Origin: Candidatus Caldarchaeum sp.
GTDB lineage: Archaea; Thermoproteota; Nitrososphaeria_A; Caldarchaeales; Caldarchaeaceae
DNA: 64,000 nucleotides
Assembly: GCA_038885755.1 (NCBI GenBank)
Contig: JAVZZH010000003.1
Span: 32,001 to 96,000 of the forward strand
Direction: 5' to 3'
How positions within the stretch are numbered: position 1 is the stretch's first letter; each line of letters starts with the position of its first letter. Positions 24,684-34,168 of this stretch are shown one piece after another. The position numbers and the translations under genes were made by a program. The notes beneath the pieces are model-generated. The model was not told the origin of the DNA. It made no database searches and saw only the letters and a program-made list of their open reading frames with translations.

Positions 24684-24826
24684 AGTTCCTCGAGCAACAC
24701 CTAGGGAGCTGGGTTCGTCTGTTCAGCCAGCATGTGGAGAAGAACGCTGAAAAACCTGCCTACGTGCTTTGGTGCCGCATCCTCGTCGAGTATCTAGAGC
24801 TTGCAACGACGTGGGTTAATGTTTAA
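24680..24826 (+). pseudogene. C-terminal remnant of TorD/DmsD-family molybdoenzyme chaperone
   Basis: KFLEQHLGSWVRLFSQHVEKNAEKPAY matches the FLxxHLxxW motif. Confidence 0.55.
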
Positions 24827-24864
24827 GAGGAGCCGTTAACAAGCCTGAGCAGGAGTGGTGAAGC

Positions 24865-25176
24865 TTGGAGTACATCTACGCAGCCCTTCTTCTCCACAAA
24901 GCAGGCAAGAAAGTAGACGAGGACAACCTCAAGAAAGTAGTTGAGGCAGCAGGCCTTTCCCCCGACATGTCCAAGATCAAGTCTCTGACAGCATCCCTGT
25001 CCGAGATAAACATAGACGAGGTCCTCAAGCAGGCTGCTGCAGCCCCCGTAGCTCCAGCCGCCCCGGCACCGGCTCCGGCTGCCCCGGCTGCCGCTCCAGC
25101 TGAAAAGCCTAAGGAAGAGAAGAAGGAGGAGGAGAAGGAGGAAGCTCTTTCGGGCTTGAGCGCTCTGTTCGGTTGA
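24865..25176 (+). CDS. rpl12: Ribosomal stalk protein L12/P1
   Basis: [11 protein letters not shown], Ala/Pro hinge, [16 protein letters not shown]. Confidence 0.97.
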
Positions 25177-25255
25177 CTTGGCGTGAGGCTTTAGGCCTGC
25201 CAAGGCTTAAGTTTAGGAGTCTCGATAGAGAAGGAAACAACCCGGGGTATGCGTC

Positions 25256-27979
25256 ATGCCGTTCGACGAGGCTGAGTACAGGCTGGACTTCTTCCTGTCT
25301 AACTCGTTCGTCAGAAAACAGTGCAGGGTCTGCGGCGAGTTTTTCTGGACTCTCGACGCCGGGAGGGAGACGTGCGGTGAATCGCCGTGCGTCGAGTACA
25401 GTTTTCTCGAAAGGCCTTATTCGAAGGTAAGGCTGTCTGTGAGGGAGTCGAGGCGCAGGTTTATAGACTTCTTCGCCGAAAGAGGCCACCAGCCCGTAAA
25501 ACCCTACCCCATCGTAGCGAGGTGGAGGACAGACCTCTTCCTCACAGACGCATCCATCGTCGACTTCCAGCCGTGGGTGACGGACGGCATAGCGCCTCCC
25601 CCGGCGAATCCTCTCGTCGTGAGCCAGCCGTGCGCAAGGCTCGTCGACTTGGACAAGATCGGGCTTACTTTCGGCCGCCACCTCACGGTCTTCGAGATGG
25701 GCGGTCATCACGCCTTCAACTACCCCGACAGGAAGGTTTACTGGAAGGATGAGACGACGGCTTACTGCCACGAGTTCATGACGGAGGTGTTGGGAGTCTC
25801 TCCGTCCGAGTTGGTCTACAAGGAATCGTGGTGGTCCGGCGGAGGGAACGAGGGGCCTTGTCTAGAGGTGGTGGCGGGCGGGCTTGAGGTCGCCACACTC
25901 GTCTTCATGCAGTTCAAAACTCTCGACGGCGGCAGAGTGGAGACGCCGATAAAAACCGTCGACACAGGCTACGGGATCGAGAGGCTGGCGTGGTTTACTC
26001 AGGGAACTCCCAGCGCCTTCGAGGCGATCTACGGAGACCTCGTCTGGAAGGTGGGTGATATGCTGGGAGTCAACAGGCCTCCAGCCAGTCTCTTGACCAA
26101 GTACGCTAGGCACACGGGCCACGTTGTTCCGAAGGCCGGTGTGTCTGTGGCTGAGCTCAGGAGGCGTGTCGCCGAGCTGGCTGGCGTAAGCCTCGACGAC
26201 GTCATCTCCCACATTCAGCCTTACGAGAGGCTTTGCAGCAGCATAGACTACAGCAGGGCTATCGCCTTCATCGTTTCCGAGGGCGTTGTCCCCAGCAACG
26301 TCAAGACAGGCTACCTCGCAAGGCTTCTGATACGCAGGGCCTTCAGACTGCTCAAAACATTTCAGGCGGAGGACCGTCTCCTCGACCTCGTAAACCTCCA
26401 GATAGACTTCTGGAAAAGCGATTTCCCCCACTTGGAAGAGATGAGGGACGAAGTGCTTGAGATAGTCGGCCACGAGGTCAGCAAGTTCCGTGAAACGCTT
26501 TCGAGAGGAGTTGAGGCTATTTCGAAAGAGTTGAGAAGCCTCGGCAGAGAGCTGTCAGTCGACAAGCTGATCAAGTACTACGACGACAAAGGCATAACGC
26601 CTGACGTGGTTGCGGACATAGCTGCGAAGGCCGGGTTGACGGTTTCCATACCTGAGAACTTCTACGAGCTCGTGGCAGCCCGACACATCCGTGAAACACC
26701 TCAGGAGAAACCCGACGACCTGAAGATGGATGTGAGCAAGTATCCTCCGACCGTTAAGCTCTACTACGAGCAGCCTTGGAGCTTCACGTTCAAAGCCCGT
26801 GTGCTGGGCGTTGAAAACAGCTACGTCATCCTCGACGCCACTCTCTTCTACCCTGAGGGAGGAGGGGCTGTGGGAGACAGAGGCTTCTTGGTGTTCAGCG
26901 GCAGACAAGCCGCCGTGGTTGACACAAAAAGCATCGGCGACGTGGTTGTTCACAAGCTCGATGGCCCTCTTCCGGAGGCCGGGGAGGAGGTTGAGGGCTT
27001 TGTCGACGCCGAGCACAGGCTGGGAGTCGTCCGCCACCACACCGCAACCCACATACTTCTAGGGGCTGTGAGGAGGGTTCTGGGCAGGCATGCTTGGCAG
27101 GCTGGGGCTCGGAAGGAGGCTGACAAAGGCCGGCTGGATGTCTACCATCACAAGAGGATTACGCCGGAGCAGGTTCGTGAGATAGAGAACCTAGCCAACA
27201 AGGTCGTCGCCAGACGTATCCCGGTGCTGATAAAGTGGCAGGAGAGGAACAAGGCTGAGGAGGCTTACGGGTTCACGCTCTACCAAGGCGGTGAGGTGCC
27301 GCTGGGAAACATCAGAGTGGTCGAGATAGTCGGCTGGGATGTGGAGGCGTGCGGAGGGCTTCACTGCGAAAACACAGAGGACGTCGGGCTCATAAAGGTC
27401 GTGTCGACGGGACGCATACAGGACGGCGTTGAACGCCTAATCTTCACGGCGGGGCCCGTGTCCCTAGCCAGATACCAGCAGCTAGAGGAAGACCTCCAGA
27501 GGGTTGCTGAAACCATCCAGAGCCCCGTCGAAGACGTTGTGAAGAAGGTTGAGGAGCTCAGCGACCAGCACAAAGCCTTGAGGAAAACCTTCAAAAAGCT
27601 GATGGACAGCTACGTTGTTCTGAAAGCAGCTGAGCTCCGCAGCATAGCGATACCTGTTGAGAAAGCTTTGCTGTACATTTCGGAGGAGGAGTTCGACGAC
27701 GAAGAATACTTGACGAAGCTGGCGGCTGAGGTTGTGAAGACTGATAAGCCGTCGCTGGCCCTAGTCTACGCGGGCTCTCCCACGTCCAAGATAGCGTGTG
27801 TTGTCAACGAGCAAGCTGTCGAGAAAGGCTACCGTGCTGGGACAATAGCCCGGCTTGTCTGCGAGGCCGCTGGCGGCAAGGGAGGCGGTACGGATACGCT
27901 GGGCCGTGGAGCCGCTCCGAGAGAGCCGCTCACGACAGTAATCTCGGACATAACCAAGCTCGTCAAGCCGAGCCCGTAG
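25256..27979 (+). CDS. alaS: Alanyl-tRNA synthetase
   Basis: FEMGGHHAF, DTGYGIER, HHTATH and CGGLH editing motifs. Confidence 0.97.
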   Translation: MPFDEAEYRLDFFLSNSFVRKQCRVCGEFFWTLDAGRETCGESPCVEYSFLERPYSKVRLSVRESRRRFIDFFAERGHQPVKPYPIVARWRTDLFLTDASIVDFQPWVTDGIAPPPANPLVVSQPCARLVDLDKIGLTFGRHLTVFEMGGHHAFNYPDRKVYWKDETTAYCHEFMTEVLGVSPSELVYKESWWSGGGNEGPCLEVVAGGLEVATLVFMQFKTLDGGRVETPIKTVDTGYGIERLAWFTQGTPSAFEAIYGDLVWKVGDMLGVNRPPASLLTKYARHTGHVVPKAGVSVAELRRRVAELAGVSLDDVISHIQPYERLCSSIDYSRAIAFIVSEGVVPSNVKTGYLARLLIRRAFRLLKTFQAEDRLLDLVNLQIDFWKSDFPHLEEMRDEVLEIVGHEVSKFRETLSRGVEAISKELRSLGRELSVDKLIKYYDDKGITPDVVADIAAKAGLTVSIPENFYELVAARHIRETPQEKPDDLKMDVSKYPPTVKLYYEQPWSFTFKARVLGVENSYVILDATLFYPEGGGAVGDRGFLVFSGRQAAVVDTKSIGDVVVHKLDGPLPEAGEEVEGFVDAEHRLGVVRHHTATHILLGAVRRVLGRHAWQAGARKEADKGRLDVYHHKRITPEQVREIENLANKVVARRIPVLIKWQERNKAEEAYGFTLYQGGEVPLGNIRVVEIVGWDVEACGGLHCENTEDVGLIKVVSTGRIQDGVERLIFTAGPVSLARYQQLEEDLQRVAETIQSPVEDVVKKVEELSDQHKALRKTFKKLMDSYVVLKAAELRSIAIPVEKALLYISEEEFDDEEYLTKLAAEVVKTDKPSLALVYAGSPTSKIACVVNEQAVEKGYRAGTIARLVCEAAGGKGGGTDTLGRGAAPREPLTTVISDITKLVKPSP

Positions 27980-28876: not shown

Positions 28877-29536
28877 CTACAGCTCGACTTTTACGGGCTT
28901 TCCACGGGTGGCTTTGAGGTAAACGCTTTTGACGCTTCTCTGCCTCTTCTCCAGCTTCTCGACAACCCTGTTGAACACGGCTTCGGCGTTTTCAGCTATC
29001 TTCTCGTCGCTGTCCTCCTCGAGACCTACGAGGCACGCAACCTGCTGGTTTTTTCTCAGCTGAACCTGCACGCTGTTGGCAAATCGTTTCACCAACCTTT
29101 GAAAATCTGACCCGGGAGGGATGGGTATCGGTGTTTTACCGCGTGAGCCAAGAGCAGCTCCCAAAGCTCTCGCAGCAAGCCCCATCAAAGCCGGCTCAAC
29201 CAGCACAAAGTCGTACTGGGAGGCGATCTTCTTAGCCTCCTTCTTCTTCCCAACAAGCGGCTCCAGCTCCTCCCTGCTTAAAACCTTCGACACACCCTCT
29301 GTCCGGCCGGCTTCGAGAGCTAGGTTGCCCGAAGCAACCACGAGTATCTTCCTCTTCTTACGCCCCAAGTCGTTGGGCAGCTCAACGACTTCTGTGAAAC
29401 GGTTCTGAGGCTTCGACAGGTCTACCCCCGTGATGTTAACGATCATCTCGATCGATTGCTTGAACTTGGAAGGCATCATCCTCTCCCTAACCTGCTTGAC
29501 GGCGTTGACAAACTTCGAACTGACGGCACGCATCAA
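28877..29536 (-). CDS. rpl1: 50S ribosomal protein L1
   Basis: KFKQSIEMIVN, LGSRGKTP, VYLKATRGKP. Confidence 0.95.
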   Translation of the reverse strand: MMRAVSSKFVNAVKQVRERMMPSKFKQSIEMIVNITGVDLSKPQNRFTEVVELPNDLGRKKRKILVVASGNLALEAGRTEGVSKVLSREELEPLVGKKKEAKKIASQYDFVLVEPALMGLAARALGAALGSRGKTPIPIPPGSDFQRLVKRFANSVQVQLRKNQQVACLVGLEEDSDEKIAENAEAVFNRVVEKLEKRQRSVKSVYLKATRGKPVKVEL

Positions 29537-30021
29537 TTCTTATCACCTAGGTAGCTGTCATACTTGCCGTTCTCAACCTGCTTGACAACCTCCTTAGCGG
29601 GCATTCCATCAACCTTGACCCCCATGCTCACGCAGGTGCCGAGGATCTCCTTGACAGCAGCCTTCAACGTCTTAGACCTCATGTCTGGCAGTTTCTTGCT
29701 AGCGATACTGACGATGTCGGAGAACTTGACGTCGGCCACGAAATCCTTGCCCGCGGTGCCGGAGCCCTTAGATATGCCGGCCGTGCTCGCTATGAGCGCA
29801 GCCGTGCTCGGCGTGCCGACCCTGACCGTGAACCTCTTCGTGTCGGTGTCGACGACTATCTCGACAGGAACACGCATCCCCATGTATTCGCCCGTCTGCT
29901 TGTTGACCTCTTCAGCCACTGCCAGAACATTCAACCCCAGCGGTCCCAGCGCAGGCCCTAGAGGAGGGCCGGCAGTGACCTTACCGCCTTCCACGAGAAA
30001 CCTGAAGGTTTTTTCACCCAT
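29533..30021 (-). CDS. rpl11: 50S ribosomal protein L11
   Basis: GGKVTAGPPLGPALG, GTCVSMG. Confidence 0.97.
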   Translation of the reverse strand: MGEKTFRFLVEGGKVTAGPPLGPALGPLGLNVLAVAEEVNKQTGEYMGMRVPVEIVVDTDTKRFTVRVGTPSTAALIASTAGISKGSGTAGKDFVADVKFSDIVSIASKKLPDMRSKTLKAAVKEILGTCVSMGVKVDGMPAKEVVKQVENGKYDSYLGDKN

Positions 30022-30057
30022 CCTATCCAACTGCTGCCAACGGCTTACTCATAAATG

Positions 30058-30957
30058 CTACGTCTTCGACACAGGCCTTACGGCGTCTATGGAGATTGAT
30101 ATGGGTAGCTGGAAAGCAGCCTCACGCAGTTCCAGCGTGACCTCCCTCTTCGCCTTCTCCACCCTGATGACCTTGCCTGTGATGCCCTTGAGAGGCCCTG
30201 AGACTATTTCCACTACTTGGCCCGTCTCTATCAAGTCTATCAAGGGTTTTTCGACTAGGTGGGGGGCTATCGTCTCGAGGCTGACAGTCATCGGCGGCCT
30301 TGCTTTGACGTTCCGTATGTTCTGAAGGACGTCGGCCACCACCTCACGCCGTGTCGTCTCCACGAAGACGTATCCCTTCAGAGCTGGAAGAATGAGGACG
30401 GATGCGACGGGAACCTTCTCGAACAGCTTGAACAACGGTACGAACTCTTCCCTTCTACGCCCGCCTCCAGAGTAAACCCAAGCCTCCATCTCCTCGTTTC
30501 CGTCATAGGAGTAGAACCAGTTGTAGCCCCCCTCCTCCTTCTGCGTCTTCAGCAACACCAGAGCATACCTGCCCCCCCGTTTAAGCTCCACCGGCGTCGG
30601 AAAGTTGAGGTCAGCCCAGCCCTCCACCCTGAGAAGCAGAGGGTCATAACGCGCCTCTCCCAGCCACTGCTCCGACAGCTCCCCCTCCTCTCCAACCGAA
30701 TGAATCCTAGCACGGAGAGGCTCCGACGGCTCGCCCGACTTGCTGATGTAAACCGAGACTCTCTCGACGGCGGTGGTCTTGGGCGATGTGAAGAAAACCG
30801 CCAGATGCTCCTCGTCAGACACTCGTGCAGCGCCCTTAGCCTCCTTGACGAAGTCTAGGAAGACTCCGTGGAACCTAGACTCGAGAATGCCGGCTACCGA
30901 CCTCTCCTGCCCGACCGTGGTCTTTACCGCGAAATACTTCATCTCGGCCTTAACCAA
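30058..30957 (-). CDS. spt5: Transcription elongation factor Spt5 (NusG) with a ~150-aa inserted domain
   Basis: FAVKTTVGQE, LKGYVFVE (NGN), VEIVSGPLKG (KOW); lies between secE and rpl11. Confidence 0.93.
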   Translation of the reverse strand: MVKAEMKYFAVKTTVGQERSVAGILESRFHGVFLDFVKEAKGAARVSDEEHLAVFFTSPKTTAVERVSVYISKSGEPSEPLRARIHSVGEEGELSEQWLGEARYDPLLLRVEGWADLNFPTPVELKRGGRYALVLLKTQKEEGGYNWFYSYDGNEEMEAWVYSGGGRRREEFVPLFKLFEKVPVASVLILPALKGYVFVETTRREVVADVLQNIRNVKARPPMTVSLETIAPHLVEKPLIDLIETGQVVEIVSGPLKGITGKVIRVEKAKREVTLELREAAFQLPISISIDAVRPVSKT

Positions 30958-30999
30958 CCCGGGATAACTTTTTCTCAGTCCATTATAAAGTATAGGGGT

Positions 31000-31170
31000 T
31001 CAGCCTACTTGGAAAGCAATGGCTATGAAACGGATTAGGAAGGCTATCAAGCCGATTATGCTGAGGCCGAGGAGCGTCATGCGCAGAGTTATGGAGTATT
31101 CTTTCCAGGTTGGTTTTTTCGCCATCTTGAAAAGCGTGACGACCGACTTTATGAAGCTCACCAGCCCCAT
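31000..31170 (-). CDS. secE: Protein translocase SecE/Sec61-gamma (not in ORF track)
   Basis: Manual translation MGLVSFIKSVVTLFKMAKKPTWKEYSITLRMTLLGLSIIGLIAFLIRFIAIAFQVG; KKPTWKEY motif plus TM. Confidence 0.93.
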   Translation of the reverse strand: MGLVSFIKSVVTLFKMAKKPTWKEYSITLRMTLLGLSIIGLIAFLIRFIAIAFQVG

Positions 31171-31204
31171 CCAGCTAAGGCTTTAAACCAGCTGGCTTTA
31201 TAGT

Positions 31205-32218: not shown

Positions 32219-33826
32219 ATGGCTGAGCACGAAGCAGAGCATTTACTTTTCAAATCGCTGGCTTCTCCGGTGAGGCTCAGCATTCTCCAACTGTTGGACA
32301 AGCAGCCGCTTGGCTACACCGAGTTGATGAAGAACGTCGGCTTGGGTGGGAAAGCGGCTTCTGGCAGGTTCGCCCATCACCTAAGGGTCCTAACCTCCAG
32401 CGGGTTGATAAGGTCTAATGAGAAGACGAAGCTGTACGAGCTCACTCCGAAGGGATGCAGGGTTGTCAAGTCGTTGGAGACGCTGCGTTCATCAATCTCC
32501 CGACATGCCGGGCTGGTGGTCAGGAAGTCCGGGCTTTTCATAGAGAGGTTTGACCGGAACAAGATTGCGCAGGTCTTGGTTGATGAGGCAGGCGTTCCCC
32601 CCAAGATTGCGGACAAGCTGGCACGTCTCGCCGAGGAGAAGCTCGAGGGTTTGAGAGTAGAGTACCTCACAGCCCCGCTAATCAGGGAGTTGGTGAACGC
32701 TCTGCTGATAGACCAAGGGTTGGAGCAGTACCGGCACAGGCTAACCCGGCTGGGGATGCCCGTCCACGACGTCGAGAAACTACTCGACCAAGCAGCTGAG
32801 GAAAAGACGTTTCACTCCCTAGTGAGGAATGCATCCAACGCTGTTTACAGGGAGTTCGTACTCCAGACGATGCTGCCGCGTGAAGCAGTCGACGCCTACT
32901 TGTCCGGAGACGTCGACTTTGAAGGCGTAGACACGTGGGCTTTCAGCATCCATTCAAAGATCTACGAAGCATGCATGGATGGGTTTTCGACAGCGTTGGC
33001 TGAGGCTGAGGGCGTCGAGAAGGAGATAGTGCTGAAGACGGTTGAGGAGAGCGACGACCAGCAGGCGGCTCTTTTCTTCAAGACGCCTGTGCTGAAACAC
33101 TTGACGATTGCAGTCTACAGCGAGCAATACGGTGGCTTTGCTAGTAGTTTGTTGGGGCTTGGATGCCCCGTTCTTGTGCCGGCTGAGACGTTCGGTTTGA
33201 AGAGATTGTCAAAGGTTGATCTCGTGTTTTCTCAGAGGCCGGCTTCGAGCGAAGGCCATTCTTTCCCTCCGTCGGGGATGGTTGAGGGGAAGGCTGCGGT
33301 GAACCTAGTCGGCCTTTACCTGAAGACGGGAGGCGATGAGAAGAGTTTCTGGAACGCTGTCGGCTCGGTCGTCGGCATCGTTGCGTCCTCGTTCAAGCGG
33401 AAGAAGGAGATGGTTTCAAGGTTTTGGAACGGTCTTCAGGGGGTATTCGTGCTTTCTTTCGTCGGAGTCGAGCAGATTGCAGCTGTCTACGGCGCGAACC
33501 AGATGGAGGTCGTGAGGAGGCTCTGGCGGAGGTGCAGGGACGTCTCTCAGGAGGGCGTGGTTGTTCTACCGTGCGGCCAAGCGTCGAGGAAATCAGCTGA
33601 GCGGTTCAGGCAACTGGATGTTCTGAGGTTCGGGGGAAGGCAGGTGGCTCAGGCAGCTCCCTCTGACAGCTATTCCTCCGGGCTTGGTCTGGTGAAAGTC
33701 GACGAGGTTTTCGAGCTGGTCAAGTATCTTCCCGGCGGGTTCAGAGTATCCTTGAAAGCTGACGAGGCAGCTGAAGTCCTAGACCTCAAACCTCTGGTGC
33801 TACTGTCTTCTCGACCTAAGCCCTAG
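32219..33826 (+). CDS. ArsR-type wHTH + ATP-cone + degenerate class III ribonucleotide reductase-like domain
   Basis: FKSLASPVRLSIL HTH; VRKSG..FDRNKI..LTAPLIRELVN ATP-cone; TRLGMPVHDV..LPREAVDAYLSGD like archaeal NrdD N-terminus; no glycyl-radical motif. Confidence 0.75.
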   Translation: MAEHEAEHLLFKSLASPVRLSILQLLDKQPLGYTELMKNVGLGGKAASGRFAHHLRVLTSSGLIRSNEKTKLYELTPKGCRVVKSLETLRSSISRHAGLVVRKSGLFIERFDRNKIAQVLVDEAGVPPKIADKLARLAEEKLEGLRVEYLTAPLIRELVNALLIDQGLEQYRHRLTRLGMPVHDVEKLLDQAAEEKTFHSLVRNASNAVYREFVLQTMLPREAVDAYLSGDVDFEGVDTWAFSIHSKIYEACMDGFSTALAEAEGVEKEIVLKTVEESDDQQAALFFKTPVLKHLTIAVYSEQYGGFASSLLGLGCPVLVPAETFGLKRLSKVDLVFSQRPASSEGHSFPPSGMVEGKAAVNLVGLYLKTGGDEKSFWNAVGSVVGIVASSFKRKKEMVSRFWNGLQGVFVLSFVGVEQIAAVYGANQMEVVRRLWRRCRDVSQEGVVVLPCGQASRKSAERFRQLDVLRFGGRQVAQAAPSDSYSSGLGLVKVDEVFELVKYLPGGFRVSLKADEAAEVLDLKPLVLLSSRPKP

Positions 33827-34168
33827 GATGGCTTTGGCGAGGTCTCCCCCAGCCTCGACCAAAGCTTTTCGAGCCTCCTCGTCTGAGACGCCTGTCTGGG
33901 AGGCGACGAGCATAACGTCCTCTTCCGAGGGAGTGTAAGCCTGTTTCTCAACGGCCTCGGCCTCCGCGAGCTCACCGCCGACGACCTGTATCACGGTCTC
34001 ACCCCCCGTCTTCAGAGCGTAGACGGATGGGCCTTTTATCGTCATCGTCTTGTTGGGCAGCTTGACGACAACCTCCTCGGCGACGCCGAGCTCCTCCACG
34101 GCTAGCCCCATGTTCTTCAGCAGCCTCTCCTGAGCCCTCCTCACCTCCCTTGGCGAAAGCCTCTTCAA
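33800..34168 (-). CDS. nac: Nascent polypeptide-associated complex protein
   Basis: NAC domain plus UBA EEDVMLVASQTGVSDEEARKAL..GDLAKAI. Confidence 0.93.
   Translation of the reverse strand: MKRLSPREVRRAQERLLKNMGLAVEELGVAEEVVVKLPNKTMTIKGPSVYALKTGGETVIQVVGGELAEAEAVEKQAYTPSEEDVMLVASQTGVSDEEARKALVEAGGDLAKAILGLRSRRQ

Follow-up and report, generated by a model that had tools for sequence, protein, structure and literature searches.

The DNA analysed here, a stretch of 64,000 nucleotides from Candidatus Caldarchaeum sp. (contig JAVZZH010000003.1, positions 32,001 to 96,000, referred to as the window), contains a gene for Spt5 (a transcription elongation factor) whose product is about twice as long as other archaeal Spt5 proteins, and the question arises what the additional half is and what it might do. 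Spt5/NusG is, to our knowledge, the only transcription factor common to all cellular organisms, and NGN, its polymerase-binding domain, is considered to be compact and invariant. We know of domains inserted into NGN only from a few thermophilic bacteria, in which their role is unsettled. Our analysis gives high confidence that this Spt5 is one in-frame polypeptide with an NGN domain split by a jelly-roll insert. There is also, by analogy with relatives of its fold, an about even chance that the insert is an added docking surface by which a lineage-specific protein or ligand is brought to the elongating polymerase.

An archaeal Spt5 with a divided NGN domain

The open reading frame (ORF) at 30058-30957 on the minus strand encodes 299 amino acids from a TTG start, and its product serves a Caldarchaeaceae-type (Aigarchaeota) archaeon as housekeeping Spt5. 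It matches NCBIfam TIGR00405 (KOW_elon_Spt5) in two stretches with 102.1 bits (cut-off 69.95), Pfam Spt5-NGN PF03439 with 48.8 bits (E 7.1e-13; cut-off 22.4) and Pfam KOW PF00467 at residues 246-274 with 24.1 bits (cut-off 22.3), and sequence searches of the PDB return solved Spt5 chains with E-values from 7.5e-26 to 1e-18. The gene order secE-spt5-L11-L1-L10, determined with Pfam on the ORFs of the window, is that of the canonical archaeal cluster. A single Spt5 gene was found in the source genome, as was the case in G009, a genome of the same genus that is complete in one contig. The homologues P0005 and P0009 start at a position equivalent to the ATG at 30942 (residue 6, MKYFAV...; the start of the ORF spans 30942-30957), and this ATG is probably the true start, which would give a protein of 294 residues.

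The match to Spt5 of Methanocaldococcus jannaschii is split, with residues 8-35 aligning to its residues 2-29 and residues 180-298 to its residues 26-144 (E 7.5e-26; about 45% identity over residues 180-298, as read off the alignment). The NGN domain, typically of about 85 residues, is not contiguous in this protein but is broken at 29/30 and 180/181 by a domain of 151 residues, and its fold elements are complete on either side. From the alignment to M. jannaschii Spt5 (residues 2-29, and again from residue 26) and from an AlphaFold2 model, a first NGN part comprising strand β1 and helix α1 was assigned to residues 7-29 (30871-30939, minus strand) and a second part comprising β2, β3, α2, β4 and α3 to residues 181-237 (30247-30417, minus strand). 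The KOW domain follows at residues 243-299 (30061-30231, minus strand), as indicated by PF00467 and by the NCBIfam and PDB sequence searches. Between the two NGN parts lies the acidic jelly-roll insert, residues 30-180 (30418-30870, minus strand), for which the fold model, fold matches, sequence relatives, charge and substitution rates provide the evidence. In the full-length AlphaFold2 model β1 occupies residues 7-13, α1 residues 18-28, the all-β insert residues 32-180 and β2 residues 184-188. According to alignment and model, the insertion point is the α1-β2 loop of NGN, which is only a few residues long in canonical Spt5.

Canonical archaeal Spt5 proteins (M. jannaschii, 4ZN1/3LPE; Pyrococcus furiosus, 3P8B/8OKI/8P2I; Thermococcus kodakarensis, 9BCT) likewise consist of NGN and a single KOW domain, and they share with the inserted protein the secE-spt5-L11 order, the Spt4 partner and the 'KGY' of strand β3. 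However, they measure about 147-152 residues compared with 299 here, the length being doubled by the 151 residues in the α1-β2 loop. An earlier note on this DNA, made from the letters alone, had described a 299-residue Spt5 against a typical length of about 150, interrupted between NGN helix 1 and the next strand by an insert at 30418-30873 (residues 29-180). Length and insertion site are borne out by the ORF, the split alignment and the model, the coordinates are right within one codon, and the peptides quoted in that note are present in the translation. As the clamp-binding part, the Spt4-pairing strand β2 and the KOW domain are intact, the activity of a normal Spt4/5 elongation factor is expected.

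Intein, intron and assembly artefacts

An insert of this size might be absent from the mature protein or from the true genome, if it were an intein, an intron, the trace of a frameshifted gene fusion or an assembly chimera. The unusual length is all that speaks for this, and we consider it hardly credible, as the insert is part of a single open frame without stops in 18 genomes and the same architecture occurs in independent assemblies, a complete one-contig genome included. Also, purifying selection at the protein level and a confidently predicted fold are unexpected of an intron, and the G+C content of the insert (0.57-0.61) is near that of the adjacent genes.

The individual variants were rejected as follows. 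The insert starts with H-G-V and ends with F-E followed by K, so that neither a Cys, Ser or Thr start nor the terminal His-Asn of an intein is present; its fold is a jelly roll, and no Hint or intein family of Pfam was matched at E<=1, in line with the absence of intein ends and the kept frame reported in the earlier note. A chimera, which that note had named together with absence from all relatives as an outcome that would overturn it, is excluded by many independent assemblies, the insert being found in 18 of 18 genomes of the family. A gene fusion or an intron was rejected on the grounds of the open frames, selection, fold and colinear contigs. Joints that skip the insert were not seen in four runs, two of them further DNA runs and two of them RNA libraries, all examined as contigs (the RNA run X7 covers only 11 of 30 bins and is informative for these alone). 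One contig of 4108 nt from an RNA library was colinear with the window over 29900-31200 at about 95% identity, which is a weak hint of an unspliced transcript.

Fold and relatives of the insert

In the full-length model, calculated from an alignment of 26 sequences, the insert is all-β with a predicted local distance difference test (pLDDT) score above 90, whereas the mean for the whole model is 86.1. When folded alone from 16 sequences, the insert reached a pLDDT of 94.0 and a predicted template modelling score (pTM) of 0.90, with 13 strands. The insert is, on this confident prediction, a jelly-roll β-sandwich, in agreement with the β-sandwich-like character that had been ascribed to it from the letters.

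When the insert was compared exhaustively in structure with 48,161 solved chains, a baseplate protein of phage phi812 came out at the top (Z 16.5; root mean square deviation (rmsd) 2.2; 147 aligned residues), besides a capsid protein of PBCV-1 (Z 15.8), the tail tip of Bxb1 (Z 14.5), the Cwp84 lectin-like domain (4CI7_A; Z 14.3, rmsd 2.7, 140 aligned residues) and a cyanophage capsid protein (Z 12.4). Many carbohydrate-binding modules followed at Z 7-9. The intracellular PHR domains of MYCBP2 and BTBD1/2 (3GBW, 3HWJ, 3NO8), also β-sandwiches, scored Z 9.8-11.0 with an rmsd of 3.2 over 130-138 aligned residues. PHR domains act as protein-binding modules; they are eukaryotic, and their link to the insert at the sequence level is limited to 2 of 16 inserts at E 0.038, so that the likeness is a functional analogy only. 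Foldseek returned nine PDB matches for the insert at E<=0.001, in agreement with the exhaustive comparison, and among viral predicted structures 78 matches at E<=0.001, mostly minor tail proteins, with TM-scores of up to 0.85.

Relatives were also detected by sequence. DUF4082 (PF13313) is matched by 8 of 16 inserts at E<=1 (best E 2.3e-4), Lectin_like (PF18560, from Cwp84) by six (best E 1.7e-4) and choice-of-anchor R (NF041539) by four (best E 7.5e-4). All these scores lie under the curated cut-offs. The insert of the window itself scores 13.9 bits against DUF4082 (E 0.055), under the gathering cut-off of 28.4 bits, is not among the inserts that match Lectin_like, and has no match to choice-of-anchor R at E<=1. 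In the reverse direction, a profile of the insert gave 138 matches at E<=1e-3 among 1.84 billion representative proteins. The top four are Spt5 proteins, and the remainder are mostly proteins of 500-5000 residues with up to nine tandem copies. When the first 17 matches were scanned with Pfam, eight had DUF4082 and/or Lectin_like, accompanied by β-helix, DUF2341, Big_5, cohesin or siphovirus tail-protein domains, and six had no Pfam family. DUF4082 was found in six of the 17 (P0032, P0034, P0037, P0038, P0039 and P0042), and in P0039 and P0042 its Pfam stretch falls under the insert match. The ESM Atlas yielded clusters of about 170 residues without names and one Lectin_like cluster. Taken together, sequence profiles and models indicate that the insert is distantly but detectably related to the DUF4082, lectin-like and choice-of-anchor-R domains of large surface and phage tail proteins. 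A likeness to DUF4082 and choice-of-anchor R noticed by eye in the earlier note thus holds at the level of the superfamily, with support from the reverse profile search, the curated cut-offs of the families not being reached.

The insert shares with these domains the jelly-roll fold, the residues F56, W114, Y131 and Y145 and reciprocal profile matches. In those families, however, the domain is part, as one copy or as a tandem series, of phage tail proteins and of long proteins with several domains that are apparently extracellular, whereas the insert is present in one copy in a cytoplasmic transcription factor of 299 residues and has invariant residues of its own (K60, DPL 105-107, R127). No second copy of the domain was found in the source genome, the one in Spt5 being the only one. 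General homologues of the domain reach only from about residue 39 to about residue 177, and the first strand (32-36) and the last strand (176-180) look like an Spt5-specific two-strand connector to NGN. By this short connector, translated in frame, the insert would be tied to NGN.

The same loop is also extended in other Spt5 proteins. Two Spt5 genes of genus g10 in a sister family (f4), L022 in genome G033 and L026 in G037, have an α1-β2 extension of about 17 residues with alternating hydrophobics and a 'FEG/FEK-V' end like the first and last strands of the insert. This extension could be a precursor hairpin for the insertion, a remnant after its deletion, or a coincidence. Two proteins of 168-169 residues (P0161 and P0162) have the same type of α1-β2 extension of about 17 residues as the g10 proteins; apart from them, a word-based protein search with residues 181-299 returned only members of the same clade.

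Occurrence of the inserted Spt5

From 5.8 billion protein clusters, 25 proteins were retrieved that have the same architecture (281-324 residues; 42-95% identity), whose source names are Spt5 of Candidatus Caldarchaeum, Aigarchaeota or Nitrososphaerota. Inserted proteins are called just 'transcription elongation factor Spt5' in the public records. Among genomes of relatives, all 18 of the family to which the window belongs (f1), representing four genera, gave full-length matches without internal stops. In contrast, the match in all 23 genomes of the sister families f2-f4 was confined to residues from about 171/180 to 298 (together with residues 5-31 in five of the genomes), and the open frames measure about 150-260 residues. 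Across the whole class (76 genomes) the inserted Spt5 was present in 18 of the 18 family members and in none of the 58 others, confirming the lineage-specific character that had been supposed for the domain. Weak partial matches also appeared in the class search, at E 4.5e-5 and 1.2e-4; they lie in an unrelated frame of about 549 residues, in two genomes belonging to another family.

In a sample of 401 genomes of the phylum, the domain was located inside Spt5 in family f1 only, and elsewhere it occurred in frames of 549-1502 residues, in 6 of 32 genomes of family f12 and in one genome of f4. TIGR00405 matched 399 of these 401 genomes, and the survey of Spt5 length based on it covers 150 of the 639 matches. 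A spot check of five low-scoring genomes of the phylum gave four uninterrupted Spt5 matches. One of these four, G399 of family f60 (L058:420-974, plus strand), encodes an Spt5 of 184 residues with a Lys/Glu-rich N-terminal extension of about 27 residues and an α1-β2 loop that is about 12 residues longer, which is not a domain insert but again suggests that additions are tolerated in this loop and at the N-terminus.

The simplest reading of this distribution is that the insert was acquired once, in the ancestor of the family. A jelly-roll domain of the type found in surface and phage tail proteins would then have been grafted a single time into the α1-β2 loop of NGN. With regard to habitat, the DNA of the window was found in hot-spring metagenome runs. 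The 4108-nt contig mentioned above, about 95% identical across 29900-31200, comes from a sediment metatranscriptome library (run X8), indicating that relatives of the source organism occur outside the hot-spring runs in which the window was found.

Selection, charge and conserved residues

The ratio of nonsynonymous to synonymous substitution rates (dN/dS) amounts to 0.06-0.34 in the insert and to 0.02-0.06 in the NGN+KOW core, as obtained from those gene pairs (6 of 16) whose dS is below 2 both in the insert and in the core. Nine of the 16 pairs were not used due to saturated dS in at least one part, and the pair L001-L013, with dS values of 2.6-3.6, was likewise left out. The insert is under purifying selection and yet evolves several times faster than the core. 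In all 16 homologues the insert is acidic, with a net charge of -2 to -11 and an isoelectric point (pI) of 4.6-5.8, whereas the core is basic (pI 9.3-9.8). The acidic charge argues against binding of nucleic acids by the insert.

Conserved residues were sorted by aligning the insert profile with 72 copies of the domain from other proteins. F56 (67/72), W114 (65/72), Y131 (72/72) and Y145 (47/72) are common to the superfamily and probably are determinants of the fold. Conserved in the Spt5 inserts only are K60, P80, Y104-D-P-L-L-L109 and R127. Lysine at position 60 (30778-30780, minus strand) is found in 16 of 16 inserts compared with 9 of 72 other domains. Within the YDPLLL motif (30631-30648, minus strand) D105, P106 and L107 are invariant in the 16 inserts and are found in at most 16 of the 72 other domains, all six positions being variable in other members of the superfamily. 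R127 (30577-30579, minus strand) is likewise invariant in the inserts, and alanine is the commonest residue at this position in other domains (31/72). From this comparison, K60, P80, the YDPLLL motif and R127 are the best candidates for a new function or for the interface with NGN.

These data bear on the possibility that the insert is a mere passenger, tolerated in a permissive loop, kept as it is not cleanly removable and without a function of its own. The α1-β2 loop does vary in length elsewhere (by about 17 residues in L022 and L026 of g10 and by about 12 in G399), the insert is the faster-evolving part of the protein, as sequence change is 3-5 times faster in it than in the core, and no partner was found for it. 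However, it is kept in 18 of 18 genomes from four genera while insert identity across the family falls to 23-35%, its dN/dS of 0.06-0.34 is that of a constrained sequence, its charge is consistently acidic, and the invariant K60, DPL 105-107 and R127, which are found in Spt5 only, are not fold determinants of the wider family. We therefore regard a passenger without function as quite improbable.

Spt4 and the position of the insert

The earlier note had raised the matter of whether the genome has a gene for Spt4 and had located the insert near the Spt4-binding face. The Spt4 gene is present in all 41 genomes searched, including the source genome, where it lies outside the window. As Spt4 is retained, the insert does not replace it, and this candidate role was rejected. 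A predicted complex of Spt5 (residues 1-240) with Spt4 reached an interaction prediction score from aligned errors (ipSAE) of 0.74, compared with 0.00 for the best of three controls; among solved complexes 116 of 157 attain the ipSAE mark applied, among mismatched pairs 2 of 215. At least 90% of the contacts agree between runs, and the pLDDT of the partner is at least 84. The contacts with the lowest error join Spt4 residues 34-47 with Spt5 strand β2 (184-191) and also with α1, and contact to Spt4 is made in the best run by residues 65-66, 116 and 118 of the insert as well. Spt4 is thus predicted to bind in the canonical way with the insert beside it, as had been suspected. Since Spt4/5 is a textbook pair, the passing of the mark may reflect likeness to solved Spt4/5 structures and is not proof of binding.

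According to passages of PMC3094117, Spt4 is directed away from the surface of the polymerase in solved archaeal complexes, in which it lies near the upstream DNA, and passages on Pol II complexes describe the upstream DNA as surrounded by Spt4, NGN and KOW1. A closed DNA-exit tunnel is expected to be missing from the archaeal elongation complex (passages of PMC6150629), and in P. furiosus NGN touches the upstream duplex (passages of PMC11162788). Given its modelled place beside Spt4 and this published geometry, the most likely position of the insert is a projecting one on the polymerase-distal side, towards the upstream DNA, which would make it accessible to other molecules.

Comparison with inserts in bacterial NusG

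The bacterial NusG has a loop in its NGN domain that is known as the 'flexible beta loop' and which we take to be the β2-β3 hairpin. It is into this loop that the extra domains of Thermotoga maritima and Aquifex aeolicus NusG are inserted (passages of PMC2995049 and PMC5224480), compared with the α1-β2 loop in the archaeal protein, and the different site claimed in the earlier note was correct. Domain II of T. maritima NusG (residues 42-233) and the smaller A. aeolicus insert are, like the insert described here, additional folded domains within NGN in thermophiles, with an unsettled role in the account given in passages of PMC5224480. In contrast to the acidic archaeal insert, the bacterial ones are 'large positively charged domains', as worded in a passage of PMC2995049, and they bind nucleic acids. 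When the full model was compared with 2XHC and 1M1G by Foldseek, it aligned only with an rmsd of about 19-25 Å, and neither structure was among the matches listed for the insert alone in Foldseek or in the exhaustive structural comparison.

The insert could nevertheless be a stabilising brace like T. maritima domain II. It would then touch the polymerase, the upstream DNA or both, and Spt4/5 would bind more tightly to the elongation complex at high temperature, with nothing new being recruited. Domain II binds RNA polymerase subunits and, via a positive patch, double-stranded DNA, and was proposed to be an adaptation to high temperature (passages of PMC5224480). The DNA of the window comes from hot-spring metagenome runs, the insert is modelled beside Spt4 near the upstream-DNA side (with geometry from passages of PMC3094117 and PMC6150629), and the absence of a closed DNA-exit tunnel expected for the archaeal complex (passages of PMC6150629) would leave something for an extra domain to extend. 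However, the insert is acidic in 16 of 16 cases, whereas the bacterial inserts and the DNA site of domain II are positive (passages of PMC2995049 and PMC5224480), and the 58 other genomes of the class, sister families included, all do without it. Also, with Spt4 pointing off the polymerase surface (passages of PMC3094117), a neighbouring domain would be poorly placed for bracing. In our judgement such a stabilising role is unlikely, although it is the main alternative.

A possible docking surface on the elongation factor

The even chance that we give to a docking surface stems from the combination of fold relatives that bind or decorate, of residues conserved in Spt5 only, of purifying selection, of the exposed position and of the acidic charge. 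On such a surface, the insert, situated beside Spt4, would dock a protein specific to the lineage or, with lower likelihood, a glycan or small ligand, in the vicinity of the elongating polymerase. The earlier note had likewise proposed a domain that binds a ligand or partner and could link transcription to a new input.

Several points weigh against this interpretation. No partner, ligand or binding site was identified for the insert in this analysis, and the adaptor role would be an analogy with fold relatives combined with conservation. The pTM of the full-length model is 0.62, so that the orientation of the domains relative to each other is uncertain. The contacts between insert and Spt4 are on record for one run alone, the best of three; it has 97 contacts compared with 71-72 in the other two. 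Spt4 exhibits no clear family-specific co-adaptation, with only two minor positions (S2 and N10) differing in a comparison for which Spt4 was obtained by pattern from only 5 of 9 outgroup loci. Finally, as RNA libraries can contain DNA, the colinearity at the RNA level is only a hint with regard to the transcript.

Two bolder ideas, to which we assign together a low probability, start from the charge and the fold of the insert. By analogy, an acidic jelly roll beside Spt4, at the exit of the upstream DNA, might correspond, as an independent archaeal development, to the acidic region at the N-terminus of eukaryotic Spt5 and capture basic chromatin proteins that the polymerase displaces, or another basic partner; or a lectin-type pocket might sense a sugar or nucleotide-sugar metabolite. 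The eukaryotic region has a histone-binding role. It differs from the insert in being a terminal extension and not a folded domain in a loop, and it has no sequence or structural relationship to the insert. If either idea were true, the lineage would have evolved its own chromatin-coupled elongation factor, or its elongation would be tied to metabolism. In this connection, the source genome has a histone-fold match outside the window (PF00808, 56.4 bits; G000:C1:385703-385885, plus strand; locus L057), in a stop-to-stop frame of 220 residues, longer than a minimal archaeal histone.

Genes in the neighbourhood

Upstream of spt5 lies secE at 31000-31170 on the minus strand (PF00584, E 6.6e-6), and downstream the gene for ribosomal protein L11 at 29533-30030 on the minus strand, followed by those for L1 and L10, all assigned with Pfam. 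No L12/P1 gene was recognised by Pfam directly after L10. The ORF of L10/P0 (27963-28826, minus strand) and that of alanyl-tRNA synthetase (25256-27976, plus strand) are convergent, and their 3' ends overlap at 27963-27976. An ORF of 126 residues at 24826-25203 (minus strand) has no Pfam match at E<=1e-5. On the other side of spt5, a protein of 535 residues (32219-33826, plus strand) has an N-terminal winged helix (DUF7347, HTH_45) followed by about 440 residues without a Pfam match at E<=1e-5, and a protein of 122 residues (33803-34168, minus strand) matches UBA_HYPK (E 4.3e-7) and is possibly the archaeal nascent-polypeptide-associated complex protein, although this name is a guess of ours.

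Significance

The literature searched on Spt5 in Aigarchaeota/Caldiarchaeum and on lineage-specific NGN insertions contained no description of this insert, and passages of a 2026 survey of elongation-factor domains, which includes 40 archaeal proteomes, do not mention it (PMC13289920). The inserted Spt5 is the first archaeal case found of an Spt5/NusG protein with a lineage-specific inserted domain. It shows that the archaeal NGN, too, can host a full extra domain, in a different loop, with a different fold and with a charge opposite to that of the bacterial cases. A fold of the extracellular or phage-type adhesion kind has been taken up by the core machinery of transcription and retained throughout the history of the family. 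If a partner exists, this would be a rare lineage-specific coupling to elongation in archaea, and K60, the YDPLLL motif and R127 would provide a handle for finding that partner.

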